From contig CM114271.1 of the NCBI GenBank assembly GCA_050084515.1, positions 14,446,001 to 14,510,000 on the forward strand: a stretch of DNA of 64,000 nt. Reading direction: 5' to 3'. Positions 6,867 to 64,000 of the stretch are shown one piece after another. The position numbers and the translations under genes were made by a program. Every line of letters starts with the position of its first letter. Within the stretch, counting starts at the first letter, position 1. A model generated the notes under the pieces. It did not search any database and was not told the DNA's origin. It saw only the letters and a program-made list of their open reading frames with translations. The stretch is from Blasia pusilla (taxonomy: Eukaryota).

Positions 6867-7019
6867 AGGATAACGCGAGACCCAAATTCGGGAAATGCAA
6901 GGTTGGTTGACCCGAGTTGTAAATCCGGGTGCAAATCAATAAGAAGAGTCTGACCTGCTAAACGAAAGCTTCTACAATACACACGATTTTCGTTTAAAGG
7001 AGTAGGTAGACTACAACGT

Positions 7020-19818: not shown

Positions 19819-19820
<2 letters not shown>

Positions 19821-19856
<36 letters not shown>
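19821..19856. repeat. (TA)18 microsatellite
   Basis: Read directly from the sequence. Confidence 0.95.
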
Positions 19857-19860
<4 letters not shown>

Positions 19861-22215: not shown

Positions 22216-22399
22216 ACGCCATATTCCATCAATCATTCTCCTTTAGAAATTTTCTATAACTCGTGCATAAGTTAAGACAAGTTTGCACCAAGTGAGGTCT
22301 TGGTTAGTACCAACAATATTTCTAGATGCGGCATATGACCTCACATGGAGCAAAATTGTCATAGCTTATGCATGAGTTATAGAAAAATTCTAATGTATT

Positions 22400-23340
22400 T
22401 ATGACCTATGATATGATTGGGCATGCAAAGGTCTTCAATACATTAGATCTCCGTGCTGGTTATCATCAACCTTTTGATCATGGTAGAGGATATGGGAGGG
22501 ATTGCTTATACTCGAGCTTATACCAATGGAAATTCTTACTATCTAGGTTGAAAAATGGCCCTTCAAAGTTCTATAGGGTGATAGATAGGCTTTTAGCAAG
22601 TTTGGAGTACGTGCAATGTTACATAGATGGCATTAATATCTTCTGTTCCACAATTGAGGAGCACGAGTATCATTGGGAGGAGGCGTTTTGATGATCATAG
22701 GTACATATGCATCCAAGAAGTGTAAGTTCTTCCTAGATCAGATCATATACCTAGATCACATCATATACCCAAGTGGGTTCGGTATTCAACAAGCAAAGGT
22801 AGAGGTTATTCGGTGAATTCCACGCCATGTTTTATAGGTCAAATATGAGCATTTCTAGGAATAGCATAAATACTTCTATTAATGATATGTCAAGGGGTTT
22901 AGGAGGATCGCAAAGTCTTTGACATTGCTAGGGAGAATTCATTAGGTGTGGCATTAGGGATATAATGAAGAGCAAGCATTCTCAGAGATCAAGAAATGTT
23001 GATATCCTCGCCCATTTTTAAGAGATCTATGAGAGGTCCTTCATTCTAGTTATATGTGGATTCTAGTAAGTTTGGCCTAGGATTGGTGCTTACTCAAAGA
23101 GACCACGAGGGAAGGGAGTTTATTATTTTGAAGCCAATCAAACAACACAATAGAGGCAAAGTACATCTCATATGAGGGAGAGCGTTTGGTGGTAGTGTAG
23201 GCCGTGGCACATTTCAAGTGTTTCTTATTTGGTAATCCTTTCACGCTTACCACTAATCTTTAGCCACTAATGTGGTTGATGGATTTTAATAAGCTTGCAG
23301 AGACGCTTGCCACATGGGCTCTAGTACTATATGGGTATAA
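22400..23340 (+). pseudogene. Gypsy RT/RNase H relic
   Basis: IGHAKVFNTLDLRAGYHQ...YQWKFL...CYIDGINIF, followed by RNase H-like remnants collinear with 61030-63380. Confidence 0.85.
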
Positions 23341-35467: not shown

Positions 35468-36369
35468 TTTCCGCAACGCAACGTCCCTCCGATCCGCCTC
35501 GAAATCGTTGATCCCTTTCGCAGACGAACCCGCTCGAATTCCCGCACTCCGATGACAACCCTCTCCTCGCTACTCCCCCCGGCTCCTCATCAAGTCACAG
35601 TGACACCGCAGTAGAATTCCCGGAGGGTACGCGATCCTCGCCCCCGCCAGATCATCTCCGGATCGAAATGCTTATGAAGTCTACAGGGAAGTGGAGCGCA
35701 GGACCACGACATCGGAAGACACCGAGGACTGGACAGCGCTCCCCGAACACGGCAAGCGCTAGAAAACCCGCATATTAAAACTCCGGATCGATTGCACGAG
35801 CCCAGCCGAGCCGAGCCGAGCTGAGCTGGGCACATACAAAGAAGCTACGAGCTCGGTCGCCCCCCGGGAACGGCGTAGTCATGGGAAGCAGCAGTTGGCT
35901 CATATGGGCGATCGGAATAAGATCGCTCAAGTGATGGCGCGCGAGTACAGGAGCAAAATAAATGAAATGAAATTAGCGTGAGGAAAGCTCATTGGATTCG
36001 TCCGGATCGTACCGATGACATTACTTCGGGTAATTGCTTAACCCACCCCCCCCCCTCCTCCTGCGGAGAACGTTTGCTATGTCACCCCTCATTCACGGAA
36101 AAGGTCCGATTAGGGCTTTAATAAAGGAGGCTAATTGGTGATTAGCCACGATGCAACTATTAGCGTCTGGATTATGATTAGAGTAATTTTACCATTGGCT
36201 AGGTGTCGGAATCTATATTATTGTTAGAGAGTGAGATCATTTTTCTTTTTGACACGTGTCCTTTTTAGCCAATTGAATCATTAGCTATCTAAGGCAATCG
36301 AATCGTTCCAATCCCATTGTACATATAGGATGGGAAATTCAAAATTATACATCTGTGCACAGACACCGA

Positions 36370-43200: not shown

Positions 43201-46200
43201 GGGTCCACCGATGGATGACTACATGGAGTTTTGATCTCTATATTTTATAGGGATTGATGTCTGGAGGGTGTATTGGGCTCCAAGGTATATGTTCACTAGT
43301 GGTCGCAAGGCGTATGATGGGATAGTGAGGGCAGAGAGACCTTCACCATCACCCCGGGGACTAGATGGAGAGGATAGCAGTGAGAGTTGTGAGGTGGCAG
43401 AGACCTCTTTTGGTAGAGGACCACCGAGTTTCACTCCTATAGTGGAGTTCTTCCGACAATTGGGGAGAAGCTTCCAGGGCATGCCAACTGACAAGCTGAA
43501 GAGTCTACAAGATTTTCAACGGAGATCAAATGAGAGTCTGAAGGAGGCATTCACGCACATGCGACGGTTGATTGTTGCCACATATGGGGTGACTGAGGCA
43601 TCGTCAATATAGTATTGGTACGTGGTGCTAGATGAGGAGCTACGGAGGAGAGTTTGGGATGCGATGTTGCTTCATACGGCAAAGCCCACATTGAAGGTGG
43701 TCTTCGAGTTGTTTGAGCGAGTAGAGCTCAACATGAGTGAGGAGCAAGTAGTGACCACGAGATTTTTGCAGGATTTGACGAGTCGACGAGTAGGAGTAGA
43801 CCCACAGGTGTCCTAGCATGCACCAATACCATGAGGGCGGGCCGATGGGCCCAAAGAGCATAGCGAGTATTGTGAGCCAATGAGGCAACGGCTCGTACTG
43901 ACATATGTTTCCCAACAAGGATGAGGGTTGGCTTATTGGATGTGTGGTGGGTCACATAGGGAGAGGGACTGCCCACAATATGGGAGAGGGCCACGGGCAG
44001 CTCCGATTTCTCAAGAGCCACAAAGGATGGCCCCACCACAATTGCAGTGTGATCATTGTCACCGATAAAGTCACACTAGGAATAGGTGTTATGATCTTCG
44101 CCATGAGGTACGTCCAGAGGTAGGCAGAGGACTTGGGGGCGAGAGAGTTGGTGGCGATCAAATAGTGGGTGATCGTGGTGGTAGAGTGCCATCACCTCTC
44201 ACAAGAGATGGAGGACGTGCACTTGATATAGCGCTCCTTACGCGCATCGATCAGTTGGAGTAGAGGATGGTTGCCATGATGATGATGCAGCTACAGGCAG
44301 GCCCAAAGCTGAGAGTAGCTAGCGTGGCGCCAACCTCCACATCTTACCACGATGCTGTAGGGATGGGATTTATGTGTAGCGCGGCTCAAGTTGAGGCAAC
44401 TTTGGTGGTGACTTGGGGTGTTGCAAGAGTAACCAAGCCATCAAGGGATGGGGTTGAGATTGACCCACGAGAGGGGACCGATGGGCGTTGTTACAGGCAT
44501 TGCATACATCGTTGATGGTGCCTTGACAACCGGTAATACCCATGGGTGGGACAGATGTGTCGACATCACGAGGAGTTAGAAAGACGACTCCTATGCCGAC
44601 TCGAGTGGAGCTAGTGTTGACCACACTGTTGGATGTGGCCACTAGGGTGAGCCACGCTCCGTTATTTTCCGTTGTGGAGTTGGCGACGTTGGGAGTTGGA
44701 CCAACGGAGGTGTTCTGACTGGCGCCACATTGTGTGAGCGTGGAGAGGTGACAGCCTCTCGTTCAGAGGTAGTTGAGGAGGTGGTGGACTTGCCCTCAGA
44801 GCAAGAGCTCTGGACATCCCCCACTCAGTCATGGCATGCGACGACGGCAAAGTTGGTAGATATGCCAACTCGGCTAGCGATAGAGCGAGCCATGATCACA
44901 CCAGGTGTGGTGTTGTTGAATAACCGAGAAAAAGTGTTTTGCTTGGTTAGTCCCACAGGTACGGTGTACCACTTGCAGCGCGTCCTACTTGATTTGAGAG
45001 CGCAACCCTTGATACTAAGGAAGGTGGCGCGTGTTTGGCGTTGGGTTTACGGAAAGGCAACATTAAGCATTGTCCCTTTCAGATACAGACGTCTATTGGG
45101 GGCGTATCACCCATGTAGTACATGACTCGAGAGGAGTTGGTGGTTATACTCCAGCCAGAGCATGAGTCGGATAGTGCAATGGTGCGCACTCGGGCGATTA
45201 CGACACCTGCAGAGTCATATGATGTTTTGGCTAGGGAGTACGGTGTTGTATCCCTCTGGTTTTATTCTGGATTTTTGGGAGGAGAAAGTTTCTTATCAGC
45301 TAGGGTGGCGATCAAGTGATGGATGGATGAGCCATCTACCGGTGTTGTTTGCAAGGAGTAGTGATGGTCAACCACGTGAGGATACGGTGACCACATTGGC
45401 AACATTCATAGGTGGTGTTTGCTGATCAGAAGGGTTTGGGGAGAGGAGCACACATGCGAAGGGCATTCCCGTAGCGGATAGTCGTGCGGAAAGACATGCC
45501 AGGGTGGGTGTCTCTTCCCATGGTGCGAAGCTTTGTTATTGTTGTTGGGGAGCATTGAGATGCGTGGAGTGCAGACGAGCACTCCACGCATGCATGGAGC
45601 CGCGCCTATGTTTGGAGTAGGGTATGAGAGTGTTAGATCTCTTCCGACGGATCAACATGGCATGTTGCTATAGTGTGAAAATGTTGCGGGAACAACGGCA
45701 CCGATGGCGCTAGATGTGCATAGGATAGGAAATCTTGTCAGATACATATGTGTGTGCTATCTAGAGTTAGGGGGACCCAACTGCAAGTTAGGATGGTGGT
45801 TGTGGGATCCCATTTTATATGCGTGAGTGTATTTCGTTTATGTATGGATCTACCCGTATGTTGGAGAAGATCGATGTTGTGCGGTGTGTAGATGTGACCA
45901 GCGATGTGTGTTGTGTAGTGATGTGTATGCGCATGACAAATGTCACATCTTATTTTGACGTAGGTAGAGTTCTATCGTGTCAACGGCATAGAGAGTCAAC
46001 GGGTTGTTCGGGTGTAACTTCGTCCCGAGATGTCGGATGAGGTTGGCGACAGGTCTCTTGTGTCGGAAACGTCATTTATGGTGATTTCCCTATTTTGGTT
46101 TTAGTCCATCAAGTGACCTATTGACCAATTCAATGGTCATTCGGTAACGTGTGCATGCAGGTTACCGTTGGTAGGGCTATTTTTGGGGGAAGAGCCTTTT

Positions 46201-46580: not shown

Positions 46581-47189
46581 ACTTCCCTATCCTAAGCTCT
46601 CTCCACGGTAATCTATGTTTGCACGTTGCCTCCTTGGTTCTTGACTTGCTGTAAGGTATCAAGGGCCACTTCCCAAAGTGAAAATTCAACTCTACTCAAA
46701 ACAGTATCTTACCACAAACAGTAAGTTTCTCTATGTGGATGCAAAAGGGAAACCTACTCTCTCAAGTTTCTCGTGGCCTTGGCATGTCATCTTCAACTTC
46801 TTGAGGCTACCGTCCAATAGCCTTGAAGATGCTCTACTAGATCTGGTTGATCTATCCTAAAAGACCCGATAATTTTTGTGCGCATACACACTACTAAACA
46901 ACTAATATCACTGAACATATACATTAACACACAAAATATCATACTAACTCATGGCATCCAAACATCGAGACAAACGAGTACCAAAATATCTCCAATCATC
47001 CCCCCAATTGGTGGTAAGGATCCTCTAACTCCAAATATCCATCTATCCCTACCTATCATGACATACATCTCTAAGACGCTAAGAGCAAAAAGTTCGGGCA
47101 ATCATGTGGTCCCATTGTTGGTCCCCTTCTTGTCATCTATGTCACACATACAAGTCATAACCTATACCTACGGAGTATCTTTTCTATAT

Positions 47190-48720
47190 ACATCTAGGGC
47201 ACATTGATCGTCCCTGAGGAACCCTAGTGTGAGGTGGCATCAGACATTCAGACATACCAAATGCCACCCTCTCGAACACCCATCACAGACTAGCATAGTG
47301 GCTGCACCATAGGCAGAAACTAACAACATACAACGCAAGCCTGCAAGAAGTACTGCTAGACTCGGATCAACTCTATCGTCAATGTTAGGAAGGGGACATG
47401 ACGCTCAACTACGCACATGGTCCTTCCAAACCATACCATAGCGTCCCTCCAATAAGAGAATATCAAATGGAAAAATATCTCCCACTCTCAAAATAGTGCG
47501 CCTTGTGGTCATATCCAACATCGTGGGTGCGTGTGTTGCAAGTAGACATTAGTCTCTCTGAAGAAACCTCTAGATAATTAGTCGATAATCAACTTCCCAA
47601 ATAGTCACATACCTCAAAGTATTTGGATGTTGTGGAATTCCCAAGTTCTCAAACGCCGTGGGTATAACTCTCTGAAACAACTTAGCCCTCTCAGAACATA
47701 CTCGCATCCATACATCAAGGTTATCGAGCTTCAACACCTCTCCAGAATTCCGACGAATGGCCATAGGAAAATTAGGCTCTCTGGCATAAAGCAACAAGTA
47801 CGGTGAGAAAGACGTTAAGGATGATTTCTTGCTAAATATGTGTCTCATCGACAACCACGACAACTGGAGATCCCAATCTCCAAGGTGACCTATTTGCAAG
47901 CCATACTTGCATAAAGCTCTCTTCATCGTATGCACAACCCTATCCGCCAGTCCATCCGCCTCAACATGATCTCGTGAAGTGGTGCGGTGGTCAATTAACG
48001 CTTGATCACACAAGGCTTGAAATTCCCTGTGAAACTCAATACCCTAGTCTGTCAACATCTCAACACGTGCACCATAATGACTCAACACTCAATCTAGGAA
48101 AGCGTACGCTACTTCCTCACTTGCTTTATCAAGCAATGCAACCAACTCTATCCATTTCGAGAAGTGCTTGACCATCATCAACACATGAGGACTATGGCAC
48201 TCCGTCAAAGGTAAATGTCTTGAAAAATCCAAATTCCATTTATGACCTAAATCGATGATCGATAGTGGATGCAACTGTGGAATCAAAGCATTGAACGATG
48301 CCTAGATTCGATCACAAATCATGCACCTGGGCAAAAAAATTTTGAACACTCGTTTGCATGCCTCATCACCAATACTATATCTAGAGCAAGTTGTGTGTCG
48401 TGTTCACTCCAAAGTGACCAAACTCCTTATGGGCATACTGCACTAAATGTGCTCTCTACAAAGGATGAGACACTACATTTACTATACCATCCTCCCAAAC
48501 TCACAATACACGTGTCCCCTCCCACCAAAACCATCTAGCTTGCTCTAAGATCTGATCCCGCTCTCTAGCACCCACTTTACTCCCGACGCTGCTAATATGC
48601 AAGTACTCCAAGACTACTGCATCCTCGTGAATATCTTGACCATCTCTCGGCTCCTCACTGGCCTCTCGATCTAAGGTCTCTCCCTTAGACCTCGCCATCA
48701 AGGTCTTGACACTTTGGCTC
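47190..48720 (-). pseudogene. Gypsy DDE integrase with C-terminal PHD finger (decayed)
   Basis: WNLDFS...HFSKWIELVAL; DHRTTSRDHVEADGLADRVVHTMKRAL; SPYLLLYARE; then LRCMLL...[16 protein letters not shown] (8-bp duplication frameshift) PPHTRVPQGRSMCPRC. Confidence 0.88.
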
Positions 48721-49380
48721 TCTATAATTCGTACGTTTAGAAAAACTCATGATAATCGTTCATGGATGCCCCCTCTAAAAGTTGGAACATTCCGTTCCAT
48801 GTTGTGAACAAGTTGAACTCTCTAGAGTTCATAGCTCTTTACGAATCGCTCCAACTCCTAAACTCCACAATGAAGTCATGCAGATCTATAGTACGCATTG
48901 AGATTCCTCTCGAGAGCACCAACATGGAACACCCCGCCCCCATGCTCAGTTCCTACCAAAACTTTTTCAAGGCTTCTGCGCGCCACTCTCATGTACTTCC
49001 CTGTTGTAGGGGTCAAGGGCCACTTCCCAAAGTGGAAAGTTAAGTCATCAAATCAACAACTTACTCAGAATAGTAAGTTTCTCTATATGACTCCAAATGA
49101 GCCAAAATGAAGGGCAAACTTGCTCTCTCATCTTACGGCCTCAGAAGATCATGCTCAACCTCATGAGGATGTTCTCCACTATCCTTGAAGGTGCTCTACA
49201 AGATCTCGTCAATCTATCTTAAAAACGTGATATGTCTCTCTCCTCTTGAAATTTTGATTATCCTTGTGTTCTTATGATGTTTTTTTTATGATAAAATGGA
49301 TAACAAATTAGTTCACCTCGGAATCCAAAAAATATCATTCAAAATTTTGTAAACTTAATAGATAAACAATCCCTCAAAAT

Positions 49381-52300
49381 TGTCACGTCTTTTACGATAG
49401 ATCGGTAAGATCTAGTAGAGCGCCTTTGCGGATAGTGGAGGATAGGCTTAGGAGGTCAAGAATGTCTTGCTGAGGCCTCGAGGAAACTTGAGAGAGCAAG
49501 TTTCTCGGGGCCTTCGTTTCGGCTCATTTGGAGCCATATTGAGGAACTTACTATTTTAGGCAAGTACCATTTTGCGCACTGCCAAATTTTGTATAGGAGA
49601 ATGAGACGTTGGGCTTTACGACAATCCCCTTCAATTTTTACAAGAAATTTCCAATTAAAAATATTTTTTAACATTGTCGTAGATCGTGAAGCTGTGCACG
49701 CAGTGCAACAGACGGTGCGCGATTTGAAGTTGCAAGCAAAAAGAAATGGTCAATCTTGCAAAATTGCCATTGCTAGGAAATTTTTAGGGTTAAATTATTC
49801 AAACCCTAAACCAACCGCCGCGCCGGCAGCGGCCGTCGCCATCAACGGTACGATGTCGATCGTCAATTGTCACCGTCAACGATCAACCGTCACCGTCAAC
49901 GGTCCACCGTCCATCCTCGGCCGTCGCCGTCGCCTAGCGTTGCTTAGAGCCGCGTTGGGCCGTTGTCCACCCTTGGTTGCCATTGCCGCCATTATGGAGT
50001 GGAGGGTCTTCCACGACGACCATTGATTCTCTGACTTTTGCCGCCACCACGTACTTTGTTTTGGCCGCCACCGTCATCGCAGTTTCATCATCAACAAGTG
50101 ATGGGAGGTGACCTCGGGTTATGGTGTTTCAGTTTTCATTTCATGCTGCTATGTTGTGATTGGTAGCTGCTCGACGACGATCGAGTATCGTGTCGTGACG
50201 CCCGTAGCTGCAACGCACCGCCGATTTCCGTGCCGTGCCGCTCGTGACTGCACCATCTAGTTGGGTTTGTCCCAAGTTCAACCCTGTGGTTGAGTTCTTT
50301 GCTGAGTTAAGGGAGAGCTACCAAGGGGTACGGACGGAGAAGTTGTGGAGCATCCACGACTTCCAGAGGCTCCTGGTTGAGAGTTTGCGTGAGGCTTACA
50401 CTCGCTTGCACCGGTTGATCAACGTCACTCAGGGGCTGACAGAGGCTCAGGCTATCCAGTCATGGTACACCATGCTGGATCGGACCCTGTGGACATGGGT
50501 GCGGGAAGGGGTGCTTCTTATGAACACCTCCCCTACATTGAGGGGATGTTTTTAGGACCGCCGAGAATATTGAGTGCAAAACATGGCGGAGGAGAGCGTA
50601 CACCATGGGTTCTAGGCGAGAGTAGTCACGATTGTCTACACCACCCGTGCTGCAACGTGGACTCCAAGATAGGTTGATTGTGGCACCACAAGCTCAGGGA
50701 GGATCCTAGGAGGCCGTGCCGTAGAGATCTACGCCTTCATATGAGGCTCAGCAACTGCCACCTACAATTACTTGTTGGTCATGTGGTGGAGTCCATCATG
50801 AGCGTGATTGCACTCGTCAGGGTCATGGACGTGTGCCTCAGCATGGAGGAGATGGTGTTGCACTAGGAGGTTATTAGTATGACTATTGTCAAAGGTATGG
50901 TCACACATGCGCTAGGTGTTTACACCTTGAGTCTCATCAAAGTTCCCAGAGAGTTGGTGATGTTGTTGGTGTGCAGATACGGAGGGCGATGGGAGAAGCG
51001 AGTGCAACGACTCTTATTGGTGATGCTCAGGAGGAGCATGTATTGAGCACACTGTTGGGAATGGCCACAATTGTGTAGCGCGCTCCTTTAGCATGGCGGA
51101 GATGCCCGCTAGACCGGCGATAGAGTGTGACATGGCTTCTCCTTGTGGTTTGTTGTTGGATAATTGGTCTTCCAGTTGGTGAGTCTTGGAGGTAGAGCTT
51201 TTAGTCTGAAGCGCATCTTGTTGGATTCAGGAGCGCAACCCCTCATGTTGGGGAAAGCCGCATTCAGAGGATTGGGCTTGACGAGAGTCGATGTGGAGCG
51301 TTGTCCATTCTGGATACAGACATCCTTGCGGGGAGCAAGTACCACATAGTATATCACCCGACAAGAGGTCTTGGTGAGGATTCGCTCGGGACATCCTATA
51401 GATGAGTGAGTTGTGCGAGCCAAGGCGATAGTGACTGATGCAGAGTCCTACGACGTCTTGGTTGGTAGAGTAGTGTTATACCCGATGGGGTTTTCCTTGG
51501 ATTACATGGAGGAGTCAGTGTCCTACAGACCAAGATGGCAGTCACGTGATGGGCGCCTTAGTTCATTACCCGTTCGATTCATAGGTGCAGTGATCAAGCG
51601 ACGGCTAGGAGAGATGGCAACCTTAGCAACATTTAGCAACACCATCACTTGGCCTAGTGATTTCATTAAGGTACATGTCCATACACAGGATATGCCGGTT
51701 TTTGACATTTCTATGGAGAGGAGTGTCATGGTCGCCGCATGAGTCCGTGGAGGAGAGGTGCCGCTTTGGGGCTCGACTGAGGAGCTTTGACGCTTAGCCA
51801 ATGAGCATGTGCAGACCACGTGGAGCAAGACGTTTGCACCAGAGCAAGACGGATCTGAGGAACCCAAGGTAGTCAAGAGTGCTATAATGACGCCCTTGGA
51901 CACCACATACATTGTGTGGCGTATCCCAGAGGAGGGTATTCGGGTATTGGATCTCTTTGGAGAGATCAGCACTGGGTCACCTGGTGTTTTGCAGGCACGA
52001 GTACACTTGCAGCAGTACTTGTATGTGGAGATTGATGATTTTGCAAGGCACGCTTCACTTCATCATGTGGGGAAGTTACGCCTCTGCTTTCCCAACTTGT
52101 TGTCTGCATCCGCCATCCAGGGTTACCAGAGTTCCCTACCGAGGGACACTTCATTGCTTGGGGTGCAGGACTTGGAGCGGGTAGGGACCATAGACTTGGT
52201 CATTTCTGGTTGGCCGTATCACGGCCAATCGAGTGCGGATGAGGGAACGGGTTAGCTGACACTCGGTCCAAGTTGTTTTGGGAGATGATGCAGATCTTGC

Positions 52301-53919
52301 GACATTTACAAGAGCATCAGCCTCGTTCTCTAACATACACTTTGGAGAATGTGCAAATTTTGGGCAATTCGAGGTCCCGCGTAAAGACAAGTGCTCATCA
52401 GGTACGCACATGGATCGGCCCGACAATGTTGTTAGATGCGGCGAGTGTAGGTTCTAGAGCACACCACCCGCGTCTTTGGTGGACCAACTTGGTACCACAT
52501 AAGGTATTATGGAGGGCCTATGTGGGAGTGGAGCTCCCCTCCGATTTGTTGGCGGATTCAATATTGGATCCCGACTGTCCATCACAGGCAGTGAGGCACG
52601 ATGATCAACCGCCATTGATTGTGGTCAACAAGATAGGCATGCCACGTGCAGCCTTTCCCATATTGGTAATTTTCCCGATTCCTATGCATTCAAGGAGGCC
52701 GGAGTTGGCTTGGTTTGGGATGACCGGATACATAGGTTGGTGGAGCCCAACGCCGATGAGCGAGAGGGAGCGATGGGATTCCCCATAGGAGTGACGGCAG
52801 TACCGTCACTATCAGAGGCATCACGACGTCATGTCTTGGGTTAGGCAATGGACATGAACTACTTGACATGGATTTTCAACTTACGAGTCGATGTACAACA
52901 TCGTTTGAGGATGCGACATATCACAACAGTTGTGTTGGTGAGCCCCATGCCTACTGAGACGGTTGAGGCAGTGGCTAGGGGTGAGACTTGAAGAGATTGA
53001 GAGAGACACCCTTGGACTTCTTAGGATATTTTGCAGGTATACCAAGAGATGGTAGCCACAACATCGAGCGTGGTTTTATGTATTACACATAGAGATCCGA
53101 TTTTGTAGTTGGCTGCAGGGGAGCAGTTGAGTTTTGTTGTCCGAGACGGGGTTGCACCATAGCAACCATCACAACCTACGTCGAAGAGTCCTACCATAGT
53201 CACGATGGAGACTTAGGACCCCAATATGGGCCCTAAGTTGACAGGAAGAAAGCGGCGCCGGACACACCAGTTCCTTAAGAGTTATAGGAGTTGTTTTGCA
53301 TTTAGCATGCATGATTTGGGTATGTTGAAGGGTCCAGGGATCCGCATTGAGTTGTCGAGCAACACGTCGATCTTCCGGCGATCCTACAGGTACAGTGACA
53401 TGGAGAGGGCTTTGATTTAGAGTAGGAGCTAGGACTTGGTGGGAGCAGGACTGGTGGAGATGTCGCATGGGGAGTATGCATGTGCCACTATCATGTATGC
53501 CAAGAAGGATGTGCATGGCAACTCGACGGATAGGCGGATGTGTGGAAATTACCGACCTATCAATTGGCAAACAAAGTCTGATAGGTATGCCATGCCCATC
53601 CTTGAGGAGATCTTTGATTCGATTGGGCATGCAAAGATCTTCAGTTCATTGGATTTGCCAGTCAGATACCATCAATTGCCTATCAGATTGGAGGACAAGC
53701 AGAAGAGGGGCGGTTCTTACCATTCGGGTTAAAGAACACCCCGGTTGAGTTTCACACGGTCATGGATAGGATCATAGCAAGTCAGGATTTAGCTAGATAT
53801 TATATTGATGACATCGTAGTCTTTAGCGTCACGGTTGAGGAGCATGAGCGACATCTAGAGGAGGTGTTTCCACGATTGCAGTTATATGGGCTGAAGCTAC
53901 ATCCAGGCAAGTGCAAATT
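49381..53919 (+). mobile_element. Family-X element copy 1 (truncated): partial A, leader, gag, protease, DNMT3-like domain, RT
   Basis: Starts TGTCACGTCTTTT. Contains ILLDSGAQPL (protease), IRVLDLFGEIS/GWPYHGQS/TLENV (DNMT) and RMCGNYRPIN...YIDDIVVFS (RT). Collinear with 54602-61380. Confidence 0.9.
51938..52880 (+). pseudogene. DNMT3-like cytosine-C5 methyltransferase domain, copy 1 (catalytic PC mutated to PY)
   Basis: Motifs I (IRVLDLFGEISTG), IV (DLVISGWPYHGQS), VI (YTLENVQ), VIII (AHHPRLWWTNL). Confidence 0.9.
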
Positions 53920-54565
53920 TGTAGTGCGCATACATATTGCTAAACAACATACATCGCTATCACCAAACACACACACAAACGCGCACGATCCCATGCTAAC
54001 TCATGGCATCCAAACAACGAGACAAGAGGTACCAAAATATCTCTTTGTAAAATAGGATCCAATCTCTCTCACAACACCATAGTTCTCATATGTGTGCAGT
54101 CACACATGTCTCTGTCAATGTCAAACCAAACCCACTCTCTGAATGAGAGGCTAAGGTTACACACATTAGCTAACCAAGACCATAGCTCTGTCGCCTCATG
54201 CCAAGACGTTCAACAAAGAGAGAATGAGATCTCAAGCTCTCTCTCCTTGAGGTATATCCCTCTCCTCTCCCAAGCTCTCTCCGTGGTAACCTATTCTCCC
54301 AAGTCACCTCCTTGGCTCTTGACCTGATGTAGGAGGTCAAGGGCCACTTACCAAAAATAGAAAGTTGATCATATACTCAAAATGGTACTTACCTAAAATA
54401 GAAAGTTCCTCAATATGGCTCCAAATGAGCCGAAACGAAGGGGAAACCTGCTCTCTCAGGTTTCTCAAGGCCTCAACAAGTCATCCTCAACCTACTGAGC
54501 CTGTCCTCCACTACCCATGAAGGTGTTCTACTAGATCTCACCCATCTATCCGAAAAGACGTGACG
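53920..54565 (-). mobile_element. Family-X solo A-B unit
   Basis: Minus strand: GTCACGTCTTTTCGGATAG ... TATTTTACA (A end, 54046) joined to AAGAGATATTTTGG ... GCGCACTACA (B end, 53920). Confidence 0.85.
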
Positions 54566-57500
54566 TATGACCAAAGTACTCAATCTGTTCGTAGAAGAAT
54601 TTGTCATGTCTTTTAGGATAGCTCGGTGAGATCTAGTAGAGTGACTTCTTGAGTAGTGGAGGACAGGCTCAATAGGTTGAGGACGACTTTGTTGGGGAAA
54701 ATCAGCGCGGAAGAGCTGCCGAATTTTACGTAGGAGAAAGAGACATTGGGCTTTACGACAGTCCCTGTAAATTTTTACTGGAATGTCCGATTCTAAATAT
54801 TTTTTAATAGTGTCGTAGATCGTAAAACTGTGCAGGCTGTGCAACAAACAAATTTGGAGTTGCGAGCAAAAACTTATGGTCAATCTTGCAAAATTGCCAT
54901 TGCTAGGCCATTTTTCGGGTTAAATTGTTCAAACCCTAAACCAGCCGCCACGCCGGCGGCGGCCGTCACTATCATAGTCCCCATCAACGGTCGGCCATCG
55001 AGGATCAACCGTCACCATTGATGGTCAACCATCACTGTCAATGATCGGCCATCACCATCAACGGTCAACGGTCCACCGTCCGTTGTCCACCTTTTGGTTG
55101 CCATTACCGCCGCTACGGAATGGAGGGTCTTCCACGACGTTCGTTGATTCTCTGACTTGCATCTCCACCACCTACTTTGTTTTGGCCGCCACCGTCATCG
55201 TAGTTTCGTCATCAACCAGTGATGGCAGATGACCAATGTCTCTTTCTCCTACACAAAATTTGGCAGCGTTTCCGCGCTGATTTCTCCCAACGAAAATGAC
55301 ATCACTCATCATCAACCACTAAAGTAAAAACGGATGGGGATTGTCGTAAAGCCCAGGTTGGGGACCGTGTTCCCCGTTCAGCGGCTCATGGGAGTGCTCA
55401 CCGGAGCAAGGGCTGCTTTCATCATTCCTTGCATTTGCCGATTTTTCGTGTGGAAGAGTGGCGCACGGAAGCGCTGCCCAATTTTTGACAGGGATTGAGT
55501 ATGGGGTTGGGTTGCCCCATGCTAGTGCTCACGGGAGCACCATGTAGCTTGCTGATTTGTATTTTTACAGATTTTACATTTTTTTGGGAGAAATCAGCGC
55601 GGAAACGCTGCCAAATTTTGTGTAGGAGAAAGAGACATTGGGCTTTACGACAATCCTCGTCCGTTTTTACTGAAATGTTTGATTCTAAATATTTTTTGAT
55701 ACTAGGGTAGATCGTAAAGCTGTGCACGTTGTGCAACAAACAGTGCGCAATTTGGAGTTGCGAGAAAAAAGTTATGGTCAATCTTGTAAAGCTGCCATTG
55801 CTAGGCGATTTTTAGGGTTAAATTGTGCAAACCCTAAATCAGCCGCCACACCGGCGGCGGCCGTCGCCATCATAGTCACCGTCAACGGTCAACAGTCAAC
55901 CATCACCGTTGACGGTCACTTATCACCATCATCGGTCGGCCATCACCATCAGCGGTCAACCGTCACTGTCAACGGTCCACCGTCCATTGTCCACCCTTTG
56001 GGTGCCATTGCCGCCATTACGGAGTGGAGGGTCTTCCACGACGTTCGTTGATTCCTTGACTTGCGTCGCCACCACGTACTTTGTTTTGGCTGCCACCGTC
56101 ATCACAGTTTCTTCATCAACCAGTGATGGCAGGTGACCTTCGGTTATGGTGTTTGAGTTTTGATTTCATGCTGCTATGTTGTGATTGGTAGCCGCTCGAC
56201 GACGATCCAGTATCGTGCCATGATACTGGATCGTCGTGTCAATGAGATGATAGCCTGGTCGATTTGCCGCACCACGCCGCGTGTTACCGCACGTTACACG
56301 TCTCGGGGAGAGAGAGTGTAGATTGAGTGCCGCATGTTTGGGATGAGTGATTGAGGGATTCCTCACCAGGTTCAGAGTGATCGGGTGAGAGGGGCACGAG
56401 GGTCATCACGGAGTCCGTTCGGGACTTTGAGAGGCGAGGTGGTGAACCCGAGAGTAGCTCTAGAGGTTTTACGCGGAGTGGCGCGAGGTTCCGAGGGTCT
56501 CCACGTGAGGGACCACCTCGACCTCTTTCTGTGTCATCGTCAGACAAGGGGGAGGGTGTAGAGGAGTTTGTGAGCACATCGCCACACATTGTGAGTGGTC
56601 CTATCAGTTGGGCGTACGAGATGGACGACCGGGGTAGAGGACCGCGTAGGTTTTCAAGTGCAGTAGGCACGATTGAGTTGCACGATTTTATAGCAGAGTT
56701 TAGGAGTTGGTGCAACTCCCAGCGGGCCAGGAACTCTAGAGAGTTCAACCCGTTCTGACATGGAAGCGGTATGTTCCAAAGCATTTAATGGGGCGCCCAT
56801 GGACGATTACCATGAGTTCTCTCAGAGATATGCATGTGAGATCAAGGCGTGGAGGCTCTACTATGACCCACATTATGTGTCATGGACGGAGCCGTTCCCA
56901 GATGAGGAGGAGGAGTCAGGAGAGGCTACTTCCTCTTCCACTAGTGACGTTTTAGGAGGAGTCACTCGCACGGGAGCAGTTGCACCATCTAGTCGGGTTC
57001 GTCCCAGGTTCAACCCTGTGGTTGAGTTCTTTGCTGTGTTGAGGGCGAGCTACCAAGGGGTACGGACGGAGAAGTTGCGGAGCATCCAGGAGTTCCAGAG
57101 GCGCTCGGGTGAGAGTTTGCGTGAGGCTTACACTCGCTTGCGCCGGTTGATCAACGTCACTCAGGGGATGACAGAGGCTCAGGCTATCCGGTCATGGTAC
57201 GCGATGCTGGGCCGGACCCTACGGACACAGGTGTAGGAGGGGGTGCTTCTTATGAACACCTCCCCTACGTTGAGAGATGTTTTTAGGACCACCGAGAACA
57301 TTGAGCGCAACATGGTGGAGGAGAGCGTAGCCACCATGGGTTCTGGGCGAGAGCAGTCGTGCTTGTCTATAGCAACGTGGACTCCGAGATAGGTCGACTG
57401 TGGCACCACGAGCTCAGGGAGGGTATCAGGAGGCCGTGCCACAAAGACCTATGCCTTCATATGTGGCTGAGCAGTAGTCGCCTATTATTACTTGTTGGTC

Positions 57501-59323
57501 ATGTGGTGGAGTCCATCATCAACACGATTGTACTCGTCAGGGTCATGGACGTGTGCCTCAGCATGGAGGAGGAGATGGTGCTGCACCAGGAGGTTATCAG
57601 CGTGACTATTGTCAGAGGTATGGTCATACACGCGCCAGGTGTTTCAGTTTACATCCTGAGTTACGTCCGGACCGAGGGCGAGGAGGGCACCGGCGAATAG
57701 CGGTCGGGGTGGGCCTAGAGATCGTGCACCAGGTGGTCAGTTGGGGGCGAGGCTGGGAGTTGCCCGACAGGGTGGTGGAGCTGCCCATGGAGGAGGTAGA
57801 GTACCACCACCTAGACGCGCCGAGGGAGACGCCAAACGTGAGGCTGGGATGGCTGCTCAGATACAGCAGCTAGAGGAGCAGATTGCCGCTATGGCATTGA
57901 GGTTACCAATGCCGGATCCATCGCATCGACATCATATGGAGTAGCCAGAGATCTGGAGGATCCTGGATGGATGTGCGGGGTTGCCCAGATGGAGGCCACC
58001 GCAGTTGTGACGCGTGGAGGAGCCGCAGAGTTGGATCCACAGTGAGGGGAAGCCAGAAGACAGATTAGGCTTCCTCACTCTTTCACGTTGTTTGAAGCGA
58101 TGAGGATCCCATCGATGGGTCCTCATCAAAGTTCCTGGAGAGTTGGCGATATTGTTGGTGTGCAGGCACAGAGGGCGATGGGAGAAGCGAGTGCGACGAC
58201 TCCTATTGTTGATGCTCAGGAGGGGCATGTGTCGAGCACGTTGTTGGGGGCGGCCACCGTTGTGTGCCGCACTCCCTTATTTTCTGCTTCCGATGTTATG
58301 ACGTTGGGGGGTACGCCCGCCGAGGCTTTTTGGCTGGCTGCTTCACTATGTGAGCACGGAGTTCGAGTTCCTGCATCACGTTCAGAGGTGATTGCAGAGG
58401 AGGTGATGGACCTGCCCTTGCAGCGGATGCTCGGACCGTCCACGTCAGATTCATGGCAGGCTGCGGCTGCTTGGATGGCGGAGATGCCCGCTAGACCCGC
58501 GATAGAGCGTGCCATGGCTTCTCCCGATGTTGTGTTGCTGGATAACCAAGGAGAGGTCTTCCAGTTGGTGAGTCCTGGAGGTAGAGCTTTTAGTCCGCAG
58601 CGCATCTTGTTGGATTCAAGAGCACAACCCTTGATGTTGGGGAAAGCGTCATTCAGAGGATTGGGCTTGACGAGAGCAGATGTGGAGCGTTGTCCATTCC
58701 GGATACAGACATCCTTGGGTGGAGCGAGTACCACACAGTATATCACCCAACATGAGGTCGTGGTGAGGATTCGCCCGGGACATCCTACAGATGAGTCCGT
58801 GGTGCGCGCCAAGGCGATGGTGACTAATGCAGAGTCCTACGACGTCTTGGTTGGTGGAGGAGTGTTATACCTGATGGGGTTTTCCCTGGATTACTGGGAG
58901 GAGTCAACGTCCTACAGACCAGGATGGCAATCAGGTGATGGGCGCCTTAGCTCATTACCCGTTTGATTCATAGGTGCAGTGATCGAGCAAAGGCCAGGAG
59001 AGATGGCGACCTTAGCAGCATTTAGCAGTGCCATCACTTGGCCTAGTGATTTGATTGAGGGACATGTCCATGCAGAGGATACTCCCGTTCCTGACATTTC
59101 TATGGAGAGGAGTGTTATGGTAGCTGCATCATTCCGTGGAGGAGAGGTGCCGTTGTGGGGCTCGACTGAGAAGCTTCAACGATTGGCAGATGAGCACGTG
59201 CAGACCGCGTGCAGCCAGGCGTTGCACAGGCGTGGCGGGTGCGAGGAACCCGAGGTAGCAGGGAGTGCTACGATGACACCCTTGGATACCACACCCATTG
59301 TGTTGTGTACCGCGGAGGAGGGT

Positions 59324-60260
59324 ATTCGAGTGTTAGATCTCTTTGGAGGGATTAGCACCGGGTTAGCTGCTGTTTTGCAGGCAGGAGTGCGAGTACAGCA
59401 GTACCTCTATGTGGAGAGTGATGATGTTGCGAGGCGCGTCTCACTACGACATGTGGCGCAATTACGCCTATGTTTTCCCGACTTATCATTTGCGTCCACA
59501 CTATAGGGGTACCAGAGTTCCCTACCGAGGGATATTTTGTTGTTGGGGGCGCAGGACTTAGAGCGGGTAGGGACCATTGATTTGGTCATTGCCGGTTGGC
59601 CATGTCACGGCCAATCGAGTGCTGGACGAGGCAGCGGGTTGGCTGACACTCGGTCCATGTTGTTTTGGGAGATGTTGAGGGTCTTACGGCAATTGCAGGA
59701 GCACCAGTCTCGTTCTCCAACCTACATTCTGGAGAATGTGCCGATCTTAGGAGACTCCAGGTCACGGGTGGTGACGAGTGCTCATCAAGTGCGTGCCTGG
59801 ATTGGCCCAACAATGTTCTTGGATGCGGCAGTGTAGGTTCTAGAGCCCATCGCCCGCGTCTATGGTGGACCAACTTGGTGCCCCATGCGGTGTTATGGAG
59901 GGCGTATGCGAGAGTGGAGCGCCCCTCCCATTTGTTAGTGGATTCCATTCTGGATCCAGGTCGTCGATCACAAGCAGTGAGGCACGATGATCGACCACCG
60001 CTGATTGTGGTCAACAGGATAGGTAGGCCGCGGGCAGCCTTGCCCACGTTTGTGAGATTTCCTGCTTCCTATGCATACAAGGAGGCCAATCCTGGCTTGG
60101 TTTGGGATGACCAGGTTCAGCGGTTGGTGGAGCCCAACGCCGACGAGAGAGAGCAAACGATGGGATTTCCCACAGGAGTGACGGCAGTACCATCAGTGTC
60201 AGAGGCATCATGATGCCATATCTTGGGTCAGGTGATGGACCTGAACTGCTTAACATGGAT
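59324..60260 (+). pseudogene. DNMT3-like cytosine-C5 methyltransferase domain inside Pol, copy 2
   Basis: I IRVLDLFGGISTG; II YLYVESD; IV DLVIAGWPCHGQS; VI YILENVP; VIII AHRPRLWWTNL; IX EREQTMGFPTGVT; X ILGQVMD. Broken by stops at 59504 and 60211 and a 1-bp deletion near 59829. Confidence 0.93.
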
Positions 60261-61474
60261 CCTCAGCTTGGGAGTGGTTGAGCAGCGTCGTATGAGATCG
60301 CGACAGATCACAACGGTTGCGTTGGTGAGCCCCATGCCTATCGAGACGGTGGAGGCAGTGGCTGGGGGCGAGACCGGAAGGGATCTACGCACCAGGGGAG
60401 ATCGGGAGAGACACCCTTGGACTTCTTGGGATGTTTTGCAGGTACGCAAGGAGATGATAGCCACAACATCGAGCATGGTTTCGGGCACTGCACGTGGAGA
60501 AGATCACAATTTGTAGTTGGCTGCAGGAGAGCGGCCGAGTGTTGTTGTTTGAGACGGGGTTGCACCATAGCAACCACCGATACCCGCGCCGGAGAGTCCT
60601 ACCGTAGTCACGATGGAGACTTGGGAGCCAGATATGGGCCCTAAGTTGACAAGAGGAGAGCGGCGCCGAATACATCAGTTCCTCAGGAGTTATAGGAGTT
60701 GCTTTGCGTTTAGCATGGAGGATTTGGGTACGCTGAAGGGACCGGGGATCCGCATTGAGTTGTCGAGTGATATGCCGATCTTCCGACGACCCCTCTGGTG
60801 TCTGATGATATGGAGAGGGCTCTGATTCAGAGTAGGAGCCAGGACTTGGTCGGAGCACGACTAGTAGAGATGTCGCATGGGGAGTATGCATCTGCCACTG
60901 TCATGCTCGCCAAGAAGGATGTGCATGGCAACTGGACGGATAGGCGGATGTGTGGGGATTACCACCCTATCAATCGGCAGACAAAGTCCAATAGGTATGC
61001 CATGCCCACCCCTGAGGAGATCTTTGATGCAATTGGTCACGCAAAGGTCATCAGTTCATTGGATTTGCGAGCCGGATACCATCAGCTTCCTATCAGATTG
61101 GAGGATAGGTAGGAGACGGCATTTTGGGGCATCGATCCTCACGGGAAGGATTGTTTGTACCAGTGGCGGTTCTTACCATTTGGGTTAAAGAACGCCTCGG
61201 GTGAGTTTCAGAGGGTCATGGATAGGATCTTGGCTGGTCAGGATTTTGCTAGGTGTTACATTGATGACATTGTAGTCTTTAGCGCCACGGTTGAGGAGCA
61301 TGACCGACATCTAGAGGAGGTGTTTCGACGATTGCAATTACATGGGCTGAAGCTACATCCAGGCAAGTGCAAGTTCTTCTACAACCAGATTGAGATTTGG
61401 GTCATACGATATACTCAAGGGGCCTTGGTGTTCAGCAAACGAAGGTAGAGGCTATCTCACGCATTCCACACCCT

Positions 61475-62855
61475 TGTCGTGCGCATACATGTCGCTACAC
61501 AACATATATCGCTAGTCACATCTACACCACACAACACCGATCTTCCCCACACACGGGTCGATCCACACATGTACAAAAATCAACTCATACATATACATGG
61601 AGATCATACAACCGCCCCCCTAGCTGGCAGTTGGATCCCCCCAACTCCAAATAGAAAATATCATATCTCTCTGACACGACCTACTACCCTATACACATCT
61701 TGGACATATCCATCGTCCCGTGTGAACCACATCAAGAGGGGGGTTTAGACATGACATATGCCATCCTCGAGAACAACCATCACATACCTACATGGTGGCT
61801 GCACCCCTCGCACATCCGTACAACATACACCTCAAGCCTACACTTACCACTGCCAAGCTCGGATCCACCGTCCCATCAACGTTCGGAAGATGACATGGCG
61901 CACAATTTCCGAAATGATCCTTCCAAACCATACCATCCCGTCCCTCCAACATGAGGACTCTCGTCGGTAAAACCTCGCGCACACGTAGGATCGTGCGCCC
62001 TGCAGTGACATCTAGCACACGTAGGATCGTGCCGCTTGCTGTAAATACACGTAATCTCCACGATGAAACCTCCTAATCCCGGACGGGTGCGTTTAGGGTC
62101 CGCGCCCATCCGCGTCCGTCAGCGCCCGTCGCCGCCCGTCTGTCGCCCGTTGCCGCCCGTCCTTCGCCCCTCGCCCGTCGCCGCCGCGCCCTAACCCTAG
62201 ACCGGCCGCGACCTAGCTAGCCATCTTTACTTAACAGCCCCCCGACGGCTGCAAGACCCAAATCTTCTTTTCTTCTCTCTCTCAACACCCTCACTCGCGT
62301 ACACCCGACGCCTACTCCGTACTACACTCTGCCGTTGTGCCCAATTCCTGTGCACAAAATCTGAGAAAAACGGACAGCACCAGCCCCCTGCCATCTTTCT
62401 CATGTAAAAATAAAGAGAAGTAAAAACGGCACACCCCGCCTAAAACTCCACTCCTCAATCTACATCGGCATATCGAGCCTCGTCCACCCTGTGCTATCAA
62501 GGAATCCAGACGCTAGCACCCTAGTCCTAGCTTACACACATACAAGGGAGGTGCTCCAACGGCCCAACATGAGAAAGATGGCTTAGGAAAGCCATCTTCC
62601 TCTCTTATATAGGGTTGGGAAGAGCCAAAAGGCTCTTCCCCTAGAAATAGCCCTCCCCTTGGTAGCCTGCGCGCACAGGTTACTAGGGGCGGGTGACCTG
62701 GTCAACAAGTCACCCGGCTGTAAAAGATCTCAACATGAAAGTTATCAAAAACGAATGGACCTATCCTCAACCTCATCCGACACCATGGGACAAAGCTACA
62801 CTCAAGATAGTCCGCTGGCTCCTACGCCCTATCCACGATAGATCTCGGCCTATCA
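61475..62855 (-). mobile_element. Family-Y-related short element nested in pol: A (62855-62403), PBS-like site, short leader, integrase tail plus PHD, PPT-like tract, B (61610-61475)
   Basis: TGATAGG...CACGACA termini. Host pol is continuous across it (ISRIPHP | SDVSRV). Confidence 0.88.
62390..62611 (-). promoter_or_regulatory. Element promoter (TATATAA at 62611-62605) and putative self-priming pair
   Basis: 16-bp perfect inverted repeat, 62567-62582 vs 62390-62405. One arm starts 29 nt after the TATA box; the other lies at the TTTTACA end of A. Confidence 0.7.
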
Positions 62856-64000
62856 CCTGCTCAGATGTGAGCCGGGTTCCCGCATTCATGGGATTGGCGA
62901 ACTTCTATCGGCGATACGTCAAGGGATTCAATTTGATTGCGAAGCCACTAACCTTGGTGACCAAGGTGGATCACGAGTGGCACCAGGGGGATGAGCAAGA
63001 GCGAGCATTTCAGTTGCTCAAGGAGAGGTTGACGTCTGCGCCCATCTTGAGGAGACCGATCAGGGGGCGTCCTTTTCAATTGCACACAGATTGAAGCATA
63101 TTGGGACTTGGAGCGGTGCTCACCCAGCATGATGATGAGGATAGAGAGTTCATGGTGGCTTGCGCTAGCCGCTCGAACAACGCTGCAGAGGCAAAGTACA
63201 ACTCGTATGAGGGTGAGTGCTTGGCTGCGGTGTGGGCTGTCACGCATTTCACGTGTTCCTTATTCGGCGACCCCTTTACCATCATCACTGATCATCAACC
63301 ACCGAAGTGGTTGATGGAGTCCGACAAGCTTACAGGGAAGCTTGCGAGATGAGCTCTGTTGTTGCAGGAGTATGATTTTCAGGTGGTACATAGACCTGGG
63401 ATGCTCAACCAAGATGCAGATGGGTTGAGTCGTAACCCATGCCCAAGTCAGCGAGATGCGACTGGAGCTTGATGGCATGGAGAGAGTGATGAGGAGTTGG
63501 TGCTAGGATGGCACGCGTCAGCCTATTTAGGCATGTTGGCTATGGAGAGCCATAGTGTGGAGACTTCGATGGCGAGGTCTAATGGAGAGTCCTTGGATCC
63601 CGAGGCCAGTGAGGAGACGACAGATGGCCGAGATATTCATGATGATGGAGTAGTCTTGGAGTACCTTCGTACTGGCAGCGATGCGAGCACTCTGGGTGCT
63701 AGAGAGCGAGATCGGATCCTACAACGGGCCAGACGGTTACGTTGGGAGGGGACACATGTTTTGAGGGTTTGGGAGGATGGCAAAGTACGCGTAGTGCCGC
63801 ATCCTTTGTAGAGAGCACGATTAGTGTAGCATGCCCACGAGGAGTTGGGTCACTTTGGGGTGAAGCGGACGTACAGCTTGCTCCAGATTCAGTATTGGTG
63901 GCGAGGCATGCAGACAGACGTTGAGCATTTTGTTGCCTAATGCATGGTGTGTGATCGGGTTCGAGCCTCATTCAATGCTCCGACTCCACACTTGCATCCA

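Follow-up and report, generated by a model that had tools for sequence, protein, structure and literature searches.

A PHD finger remnant joined to integrase sequence

The DNA analysed here is a 64,000-nucleotide stretch of Blasia pusilla (assembly GCA_050084515.1, contig CM114271.1, positions 14,446,001 to 14,510,000 of the forward strand), hereafter the window. Near its end, the minus strand carries the remnant of a PHD finger joined to the last part of a Ty3/gypsy retrotransposon integrase (copy A; Table 1), and this fragment lies within a plus-strand element of the same family (E1). Translation of the minus strand over 61692-61835 gives a PHD finger of 47 residues including an internal stop. 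The first ligand Cys is encoded at 61829-61827 and the last at 61700-61698; ligand 2 is a Tyr (Cys to Tyr, 61820-61818), a TAG lies within the frame at 61790-61788, and the terminal stop is at 61694-61692. With seven of eight ligands and an in-frame stop, copy A itself falls short of the eight-ligand C4HC3 pattern. It is nevertheless recognised by the Pfam PHD profile PF00628 (curated cut-off 24 bits), which gives 33 bits (E 6e-8) when the read-through is scored with X in place of the internal TAG, and 37 bits (E 3e-9) for the 31 residues downstream of that codon. A first-pass annotation, made from the letters alone, had read a C4HC3 finger with a mutated second Cys on the minus strand at 61692-61829; both the position and the substitution are exact.

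The sequence next to the finger is integrase. The open frame upstream of the PHD, to 62072, runs on into integrase C-terminal sequence, and residues 600-649 of a family protein align to 62077-61928. In a tblastn search, residues 618-725 of the relative P0017 matched 62018-61695 with 73% identity (E 4e-45); the resemblance of copy A to the PHD/integrase family is far above chance. Integrase homology begins at about 62015-62018 (LDVTAGRTILRV...) and is preceded by a short direct duplication. Alignment to P0017 leaves the last ~108 codons of integrase/pol at copy A, with no integrase core, and within the window an integrase C-terminus is literally visible only at the 47-kb copy (copy B). The possibility that the finger is an exon of a host gene was rejected, as at three places the PHD adjoins integrase and family sequence without a break.

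Copy A is therefore a dead, mutated, promoterless, antisense 3' pol fragment, which itself does nothing and is uninformative about targeting. No raw RNA reads of run X22 at ≥95% identity cover 61618-62220, and none of run X23 cover 61819-62019, where mean depth is ~1 in both flanking bins; these results are uninformative, as copy A is diverged.

Integrase-PHD relatives

A word-indexed family search with the 91-residue copy A read-through as query returned 42 proteins, the named ones belonging to the liverworts Marchantia polymorpha and Calypogeia fissa and the moss Sphagnum fallax. Matches covering at least 85% of the query are 58-81% identical to it, and shorter partial ones reach 85%. Precomputed Pfam assignments place rve (PF00665) and PHD in one open reading frame (ORF) in six of the 42 (P0001, P0010, P0014, P0015, P0017, P0028). 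In P0017 (728 aa) the order is RNaseH - Integrase_H2C2 - rve - PHD, and residues 681-725 form the finger. In well-preserved relatives the finger follows the SH3-like integrase C-terminal region in frame, and in the bryophyte group it ends 1-7 residues ahead of the stop. No chromo family was found in P0017 or P0001 at E ≤ 0.1; the PHD stands in that place. This agrees with the first-pass proposal that the finger occupies the position at which chromoviruses carry a chromodomain, a proposal borne out in the six proteins with rve and PHD in one ORF.

The relatives also retain the finger itself. PF00628 scores 33.7 bits on P0017, 41.4 bits on P0001, and 37-45 bits on P0080, P0087, P0083 and P0094, so that the Pfam check proposed in the annotation is passed by the relatives as well as by the window copy. 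An alignment-based count finds all eight ligands (CCCCHCCC) in 21 of the 42 matches; the remaining 21 have single C to Y/S/R or H to Y changes, or are cut gene models. An additional 16 more distant proteins, recovered with the methyltransferase query described below, retain the strict C4HC3 pattern (regular expression). The family thus has its eight zinc ligands, and its best-preserved members have the PHD in frame with integrase, the two features on which the annotation had staked its reading.

From the integrase N-terminus to the last PHD Cys, P0017 and the more distant P0080 are 45% identical, and this end-to-end identity indicates that the integrase-PHD unit is old and no local accident. 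The ligand-region motif MLxCDxCxxGWHxxCLxPP...P.G.W.CP.C is conserved from bryophyte to algal members. An ESM Atlas cluster labelled 'Integrase zinc binding/PHD-finger/Integrase core', with 80 proteins, Mollusca as the commonest phylum and a score of 0.94 to P0001, is a lead only. Judged by these alignments, the PHD finger is a C-terminal module of a Ty3/gypsy integrase, in a family closest to sequences of Marchantia, Calypogeia and Sphagnum.

A DNMT3-like methyltransferase in the same family

The window copies carry a further domain. A DNMT3-like C5 cytosine methyltransferase (DNMT) lies between the protease (PR) and reverse transcriptase (RT) regions at 59339-60262, 51167-53021 and 20905-22333, all on the plus strand. 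Pfam searches of single stop-to-stop ORFs of the E1 DNMT region gave no match at E ≤ 0.01, and the domain of E1 was recognised solely through its relatives: a search with one DNMT ORF led to Marchantia and Calypogeia proteins. P0047 (Mp_6g11220, 1333 aa) encodes GAG (CCHC), PR (DSG), DNMT and the start of RT in a single frame, and Sphagnum, Marchantia and Calypogeia gene models likewise have the DNMT between PR and RT, in one frame with GAG. A DNMT3-type C5 methyltransferase therefore lies within a gypsy polyprotein ORF in P0047, with the same order in E1; the pol order PR-RT-RNase H-integrase (IN), with a DDE (rve) integrase, was found in E1 and P0078, and its RNase H-IN part in P0017. Among solved structures the DNMT is matched best by DNMT3A/3B (E 8e-11 to 1e-9), with plant DRM next, and the catalytic motifs PCQ and ENV are retained in relatives.

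By sequence comparison, the bryophyte polyprotein has the order GAG-PR-DNMT3-like-RT-RNase H-IN-PHD, with DNMT and PHD belonging to one family. This assignment follows from the likeness of E1 to the PHD-ending P0017 and P0028 (66-68% identity over RNase H and integrase) and from copies B and C, which share DNA with E1 and E2; none of the bryophyte ORFs recovered is intact and carries both domains. A wider search with the DNMT-RT part of P0047 did recover both domains in one ORF: P0080 and P0094 contain DNMT, RT, RNase H, IN and PHD, in the Pfam order RT-RNase H-DNMT-IN-PHD. The first-pass suggestion that the two domains occur in one element thus holds for the family, and for a single ORF in these more distant proteins. 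P0086 and P0087 of Haematococcus lacustris were also found and belong to the group with this order, although P0087 has no Pfam DNMT match and its DNMT-like region is deduced from query coverage. Members of the group extend up to ~350 residues beyond the PHD.

The DNMT of P0080 is 38% identical to that of P0047. Together with the 45% identity over IN-PHD, this indicates that reader and writer are both old in the clade and that the DNMT cassette has changed position. A sister lineage, P0078 and P0079 (2318 aa), has the GAG-PR-DNMT-RT-RNase H-IN order without a PHD; P0078 contains zf-CCHC, Asp protease, DNMT, RVT_1, RNaseH, H2C2 and rve.

Separately, residues 1640-1881 of P0080 form a ~240-residue tail after the PHD with a DPWAGTGT-type motif, and similar tails occur in P0104 and P0105. 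The nearest ESM Atlas clusters to the P0080 tail are bacterial or phage, one of them with PF05175 (MTS) in 26% of members (0.92; a lead only). The tail may be a second, prokaryote-like methyltransferase. Second methyltransferases of this kind are mentioned for other long terminal repeat (LTR) elements in a passage of a 2026 preprint.

Type of PHD finger

Among the best 60 solved sequence matches to the family PHD are CHD4 PHD1/2 (E 1e-14), PHF12, DPF2/3 PHD2, PHF21A/BHC80, KDM5A/B and Lid PHD1, ATXR5, MLL3/4, WSTF, BAZ2A/B, MOZ/MORF, UHRF1/2, ORC1b, AIRE and PHF10; no ING, BPTF, TAF3 or PHF2/8-type reader of trimethylated H3K4 (H3K4me3) is among them. An AlphaFold2 (AF2) model of P0003 has predicted local distance difference test (pLDDT) values of 75-86 over the PHD (residues 170-220), and this part superposes on DPF3b-H3, ATXR5-H3, BHC80, BAZ2A-H3K4me0 and UHRF1-H3 at 0.7-1.4 Å over 47-52 columns. 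Foldseek gives TM scores of 0.73-0.85 (normalised by target length) to isolated PHD structures; its matches to UHRF1 TTD-PHD, at a root-mean-square deviation (rmsd) of 13-14 Å, are driven by the PHD alone. The fold neighbours, which are histone-tail readers, show 36-44% identity at about 1 Å rmsd.

The superposed proteins read the unmodified H3 N-terminus, as titles of the structure entries state in part. By similarity in sequence and modelled fold, the closest solved PHD fingers are readers of the unmodified H3 tail (CHD4, BHC80, KDM5A/B PHD1, DPF2/3, ATXR5, BAZ2A), a resemblance that the first-pass annotation had already drawn from the signature and that the best 60 solved matches uphold. 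Reading of H3 unmethylated at lysine 4 (H3K4me0) is accordingly the best guess, and no more, that sequence and model offer. Conserved aromatics in the alignment are limited to two Trp residues, one preceding the His ligand and one preceding ligand 7. Aromatics at these two positions are structural rather than cage-forming, and by this judgement the family PHD would lack an aromatic cage.

The nested arrangement at copy A

Copy A does not lie directly in E1. It is part of ~0.79 kb of extra sequence, which lies within an abundant LTR-like repeat (U), which in turn lies within an RT. The U block splits the E1 RT between ...IPHP and DVSR, where intact relatives have P-x-DVSR. The first ~45 bases of U resemble the start of the family's own LTR, and its flanks (61475-61619 and 62413-62852) occur uninterrupted at 22216-21590 and at 46581-45961. 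The extra sequence is missing from most genomic copies of the repeat: in DNA run X1, which bears the same species label, the U flanks are 5-20x deeper than neighbouring bins, and many contigs join 61601-61613 straight to 62393-62439. RNA reads likewise jump from 61613 to 62406.

Nesting by clean insertion of another element of the family at 61.7 kb was rejected, as just ~0.4 kb of pol is present, no target-site duplication (TSD) was found at the U block/copy A locus, and the LTR-like repeat on either side is uninterrupted elsewhere. The locus looks like the product of recombination or decay and not of a clean integrase event.

Several further observations concern U. The repeat is abundant, measures ~630 bp and also occurs at 46581-45712, where it is arranged part1-part2-part1. 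Reads in which the U end is followed, after ~20 bases, by the U start point to tandem or LTR-LTR junctions. Where U meets E1, the final ~17 bases of the repeat resemble the RT sequence at that junction, and template-switching recombination is one possibility for this resemblance. An LTR start, oriented alike in both cases, interrupts the RTs of E2 (53919) and E1 (61475) at RT positions that lie within 100 bp of each other. An insertion shared by E1 and E2 was rejected, since the E2 RT ends 100 bp earlier and abuts the LTR leading into E1; the near-coincident interruptions could reflect coincidence, site preference or recombination. Finally, the antisense IN-C/PHD copy (61692-62077, minus) lies within the plus-strand transcript unit of E1, whose own IN-PHD is expected just past 64000. 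A read-through transcript of E1 could, purely speculatively, fold into an extended hairpin and fuel silencing of the family by small RNAs.

Other family copies in the window

Table 1. Positions in the window of copy A, the surrounding repeat and the related elements
Feature	Position	Strand	Remarks
PHD finger remnant (copy A)	61692-61829	minus	PF00628 and alignment to family proteins; 7 of 8 zinc ligands
Last part of integrase C-terminal (SH3-like) region	61830-62077	minus	In frame with the PHD; alignment to P0017
Extra sequence, ~0.79 kb	61613-62405		Antisense IN-C and PHD fragment plus ~330 bp of another repeat
LTR-like repeat U	61475-62852	plus	Starts TTGTCGTGCGCATACA, ends AGATGTGA; interrupts RT of E1
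Element E1	53919-64000	plus	Runs off the window end; same family as copy A
E1 probable 5' LTR	53919-56230	plus	Internal duplication present
E1 GAG	56636-57893	plus	
E1 PR	~57902-58966	plus	
E1 DNMT3-like domain	~59339-60262	plus	One frameshift near 59815-59830; motifs FGG, PCH for PCQ, ENV
E1 RT	60718-61475 and 62852-62950	plus	
E1 RNase H	62954-63350	plus	
E1 integrase N-terminus	63470-64000	plus	Continues off the window
Element E2	49000-53963	plus	GAG, PR, DNMT, RT to 53919; ~82% identical to E1
Copy B	47184-48990	minus	GAG N-terminal piece 48892-48725, integrase 48680-47249, PHD 47332-47190
Copy C	6347-8401	minus	Heavily decayed; RT 8401-7526, IN-C and PHD remnant 7352-7036, LTR start 6802-6347
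Element E3	43031-45473	plus	GAG-PR fragment of the family
Element E4	18424-23344	plus	Decayed GAG, PR, DNMT, RNase H

With at least seven copies or fragments, the family spans ~27 of the 64 kb (Table 1). Two of the copies, besides copy A, retain traces of the PHD. The module that the annotation had recognised behind a DDE integrase at ~47 kb is present there, as P0017 residues 232-725 (integrase through PHD) align by tblastn to 48680-47190 on the minus strand. The PHD of this copy B has lost ligand 2, carries an in-frame stop and has an 8-bp insertion that shifts the frame; PF00628 matches only its first half, at 21.9 bits, under the cut-off. An internal deletion joins the GAG N-terminal piece to the integrase, so that GAG residues ~20-75 are fused directly to integrase over 48892-47184, head to head with E2. 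The GAG and IN DNA of copy B is 77-79% identical to E1.

The claim of a recognisable third module at about 7040-7170 stands in part. Copy C can be detected by family alignment (P0017 618-707 against 7352-7090, 45-60% identity), but its PHD (~7161-7036) gives no PF00628 match and retains about three of the eight ligands. In addition to the PHD, copy C has an RT and an LTR start in common with E1 and E2. This common LTR start (TTGT.GTGCGCATACA) comes after the PHD in copy C and before GAG in E1 and E2, and E2 adjoins the LTR start that leads into E1. Paired LTRs are seen for no element in the window, with E1 running off its end. A solo U repeat (22216-21590, minus) lies inside the DNMT of E4.

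DNA divergence among the three PHD copies is 31-40%. Differences show an excess of G>A/C>T in the more AT-rich copies (68 of 145 differences between copies A and C, with 16 in the reverse direction), which would fit the decay of methylated repeats. GC content varies between 28% and 56% among 2-kb windows, GC skew is locally strong, and older family copies are more AT-rich. Stranded RNA reads 95-99% identical to E1 are mostly sense (219 of 220 in X22 and 173 of 174 in X23), indicating that related copies are transcribed. Two paralogous DUF604/Fringe-like host genes, at 9950-12386 and 33068-35569 (both minus), remain intact amid the decayed retrotransposon copies; each consists of two long ORFs ~0.6-0.7 kb apart.

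Proposed role of the PHD finger

That the PHD is a C-terminal accessory domain of the integrase in a Ty3/gypsy LTR retrotransposon family of green plants is, on the alignments, very nearly certain. Its role is argued largely by analogy: the finger would tether the integrase-cDNA complex to nucleosomes, as the chromoviral chromodomain does, and we consider this role fairly probable. The target nucleosomes would most likely be those lacking H3K4 methylation, and new copies would thus land off active promoters, in silent, repeat-rich chromatin. H3K4me0 as the mark read is a tentative assignment from sequence and structural models, on which we would put slightly less than even weight; tethering of integration to H3K4-unmethylated chromatin is a plausible prediction. 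Identity, architecture, tethering and mark taken together form the best explanation, which as a whole we hold to be probably correct.

Several points weigh against it. The role of the PHD, the mark and the targeting of integration are all argued from likeness in sequence and fold; the mark in particular is predicted from neighbours, and few residues can switch the specificity of a PHD finger. The AF2 model is poor outside the PHD (mean pLDDT 48), and the placement of the finger on the integrase cannot be read from it. The PHD is damaged in half of the recovered relatives, though these are mostly decayed genomic copies, and the PHD-less P0078 and P0079 imply that such elements can dispense with it. 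Dense self-nesting, which the annotation found consistent with integration into heterochromatin, is real in the window but is weak evidence for targeting; copy A has no TSD and lies inside the extra 0.79 kb within an LTR-like repeat. Clustering of copies would be equally expected from passive accumulation in a gene-poor region, and two intact-looking DUF604 host genes lie among the copies.

The PHD could instead, or additionally, serve the element's DNMT: sensing H3K4me0 in the manner of an ADD domain, it would position or license de novo cytosine methylation, for example so that a newly integrated copy silences or camouflages itself. Animal DNMT3 senses H3K4me0 through its ADD domain, the enzyme encoded here is DNMT3-like with PCQ and ENV retained in relatives, and in P0080 and P0094, with the order RNase H-DNMT-IN-PHD in one ORF, the neighbouring domains could stay on one polypeptide. 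However, the bryophyte DNMT sits between PR and RT, with RT, RNase H and integrase separating it from the PHD in a polyprotein that is expected to be cut by PR, and P0078 and P0079 carry the DNMT without any PHD. ADD-like pairing in the bryophyte arrangement is thus an analogy and no structural fact, and we regard this alternative as rather improbable.

A little less probable still is a structural or protein-binding zinc module without histone reading, acting for instance in integrase multimerisation or in contact with a host factor. Some PHD fingers do bind non-histone partners, and the sister lineage lives without the domain; conservation of the ligand-region motif from bryophyte to algal members, and the match to histone-tail readers at 36-44% identity and about 1 Å rmsd, argue for a reader instead. 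The least probable alternative is a finger that reads an active or poised mark (H3K4me3 or, DPF-like, acyl-lysine) and sends integration to promoters or permissive sites, as some retroelements do: DPF2/3 and MOZ/MORF fingers, which contribute to the reading of H3K14 acylation, are among the closest sequence and fold neighbours, but the acyl pocket of a DPF is formed by the first finger of a tandem pair and the finger here is single, the best 60 solved matches contain no H3K4me3 reader of the types listed above, the two Trp positions are the only conserved aromatics, and the window copies lie among other repeats. Tethering to H3K4-unmethylated chromatin remains the reading we favour.

Comparison with known systems

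Chromodomain-bearing Ty3/gypsy elements are reportedly the subject of Gao et al. in 2008. Such elements, termed chromoviruses, include MAGGY and Tf1 according to the passages available from two sources (PMC6673714; bioRxiv 10.1101/2021.11.30.470311). Chromoviruses and the present family have in common the Ty3/gypsy order, a small histone reader after the SH3-like integrase C-terminus and the same proposed tethering role. In contrast, the chromoviral reader is a chromodomain for H3K9me, whereas the present family has a PHD, with the unmodified H3 N-terminus as the likely ligand from sequence neighbours, and additionally a DNMT.

PHD fingers in retroelements have precedents. REM1 is said to be a PHD-bearing retrotransposon (attributed to Perez-Alegre et al. 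in 2005), and Kapitonov and Jurka reportedly described CR1-like LINEs with a PHD in 2003. The passages available describe PHD fingers in retrotransposons as widespread (PMC6673714; bioRxiv 10.1101/2021.11.30.470311), and in a survey of 172 eukaryote genomes for fusions of PHD or Chromo with transposons, both domains are stated to be frequent companions of RT and integrase (bioRxiv 10.1101/2021.11.30.470311, in part). Gypsy-7a_cRei of Chlamydomonas is drawn with a PHD, according to a figure legend (PMC9940879, Fig. 6). These elements, like the present family, encode the finger in pol; in the published passages, however, none is described with a DNMT and none is from a bryophyte.

Compared with H3K4me0 readers (BHC80/PHF21A, CHD4 PHD1/2, KDM5A/B PHD1, BAZ2A, AIRE PHD1, ATXR5), the family PHD has the same C4HC3 spacing and the pattern CDxC..(Y/W)H..CL.PP...P.G.W.CP.C, with E values of 1e-14 to 6e-7 and rmsd of 0.7-1.4 Å over about 50 residues. 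It differs in standing alone at the end of a transposon integrase and in having Trp, not Tyr, before the His ligand.

For the methyltransferase, the closest description is KnitGypsy-Dnmt3 of the streptophyte Klebsormidium nitens, a gypsy element with a DNMT3-related, non-rearranged DNMT in its pol ORF (de Mendoza et al. 2018, PMC5890265, in part). Set beside this description only, the present family likewise has a DNMT3-like DNMT in frame (GAG-PR-DNMT-RT in P0047), but its host is a bryophyte-type land plant and not a charophyte alga. The main text of PMC5890265, figures and supplements aside, contains none of the words 'PHD', 'Marchantia' and 'liverwort', and a passage of a 2026 preprint mentions 'streptophytes (Gypsy-DNMT3)'. 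Our literature search, which did not reach transposable element databases (Repbase), figures or supplements, found neither a bryophyte gypsy element described as carrying a PHD and/or a DNMT nor any element described as combining the two domains; the bryophyte family may already appear in Supplementary Table 6 of the chromatin-evolution preprint or in Fig. 4c or the supplements of PMC5890265.

Significance

The family joins known kinds, the reader-bearing gypsy elements and Gypsy-DNMT3, and is a new example and no new principle. What merits further attention is that writer and reader are paired, and that the pairing has lasted in land plants. According to an opinion paper, 'land plants, such as tracheophytes' lack DNA methylases encoded by transposons (PMC6338049); the GAG-PR-DNMT-RT models of Marchantia, Calypogeia and Sphagnum show that DNMT-bearing elements do occur in bryophytes.

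A broader interpretation, which we consider unlikely, is that a gypsy clade of Viridiplantae carries its own epigenetic toolkit of a DNMT3-type writer and an H3K4me0-type PHD reader, and that where DNMT, IN and PHD are contiguous a single reader aims both integration and de novo methylation. On this reading the DNMT cassette would have moved within pol, to judge from its place between PR and RT in the bryophyte-type order and its place after RNase H and before IN in Haematococcus and further relatives, and some algal-type members would have added the prokaryote- or phage-like, methyltransferase-like tail after the PHD. Were this so, the element would pick H3K4-unmethylated chromatin and then methylate it, a transposon counterpart in land plants of the DNMT3 ADD-methyltransferase logic.

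Chromatin-reading domains of retroelements are the clearest cases of transposons choosing their landing site, with the chromovirus chromodomain as the textbook example. The family described here has a second type of reader at the same position, along with a DNMT3-like enzyme, and its bryophyte hosts include the genetically tractable Marchantia, for which chromatin maps are published. Should the PHD indeed steer integration, it would amount to a targeting module that is compact and can be swapped, and would allow asking whether H3K4me0 reading alone keeps a mobile element out of genes.

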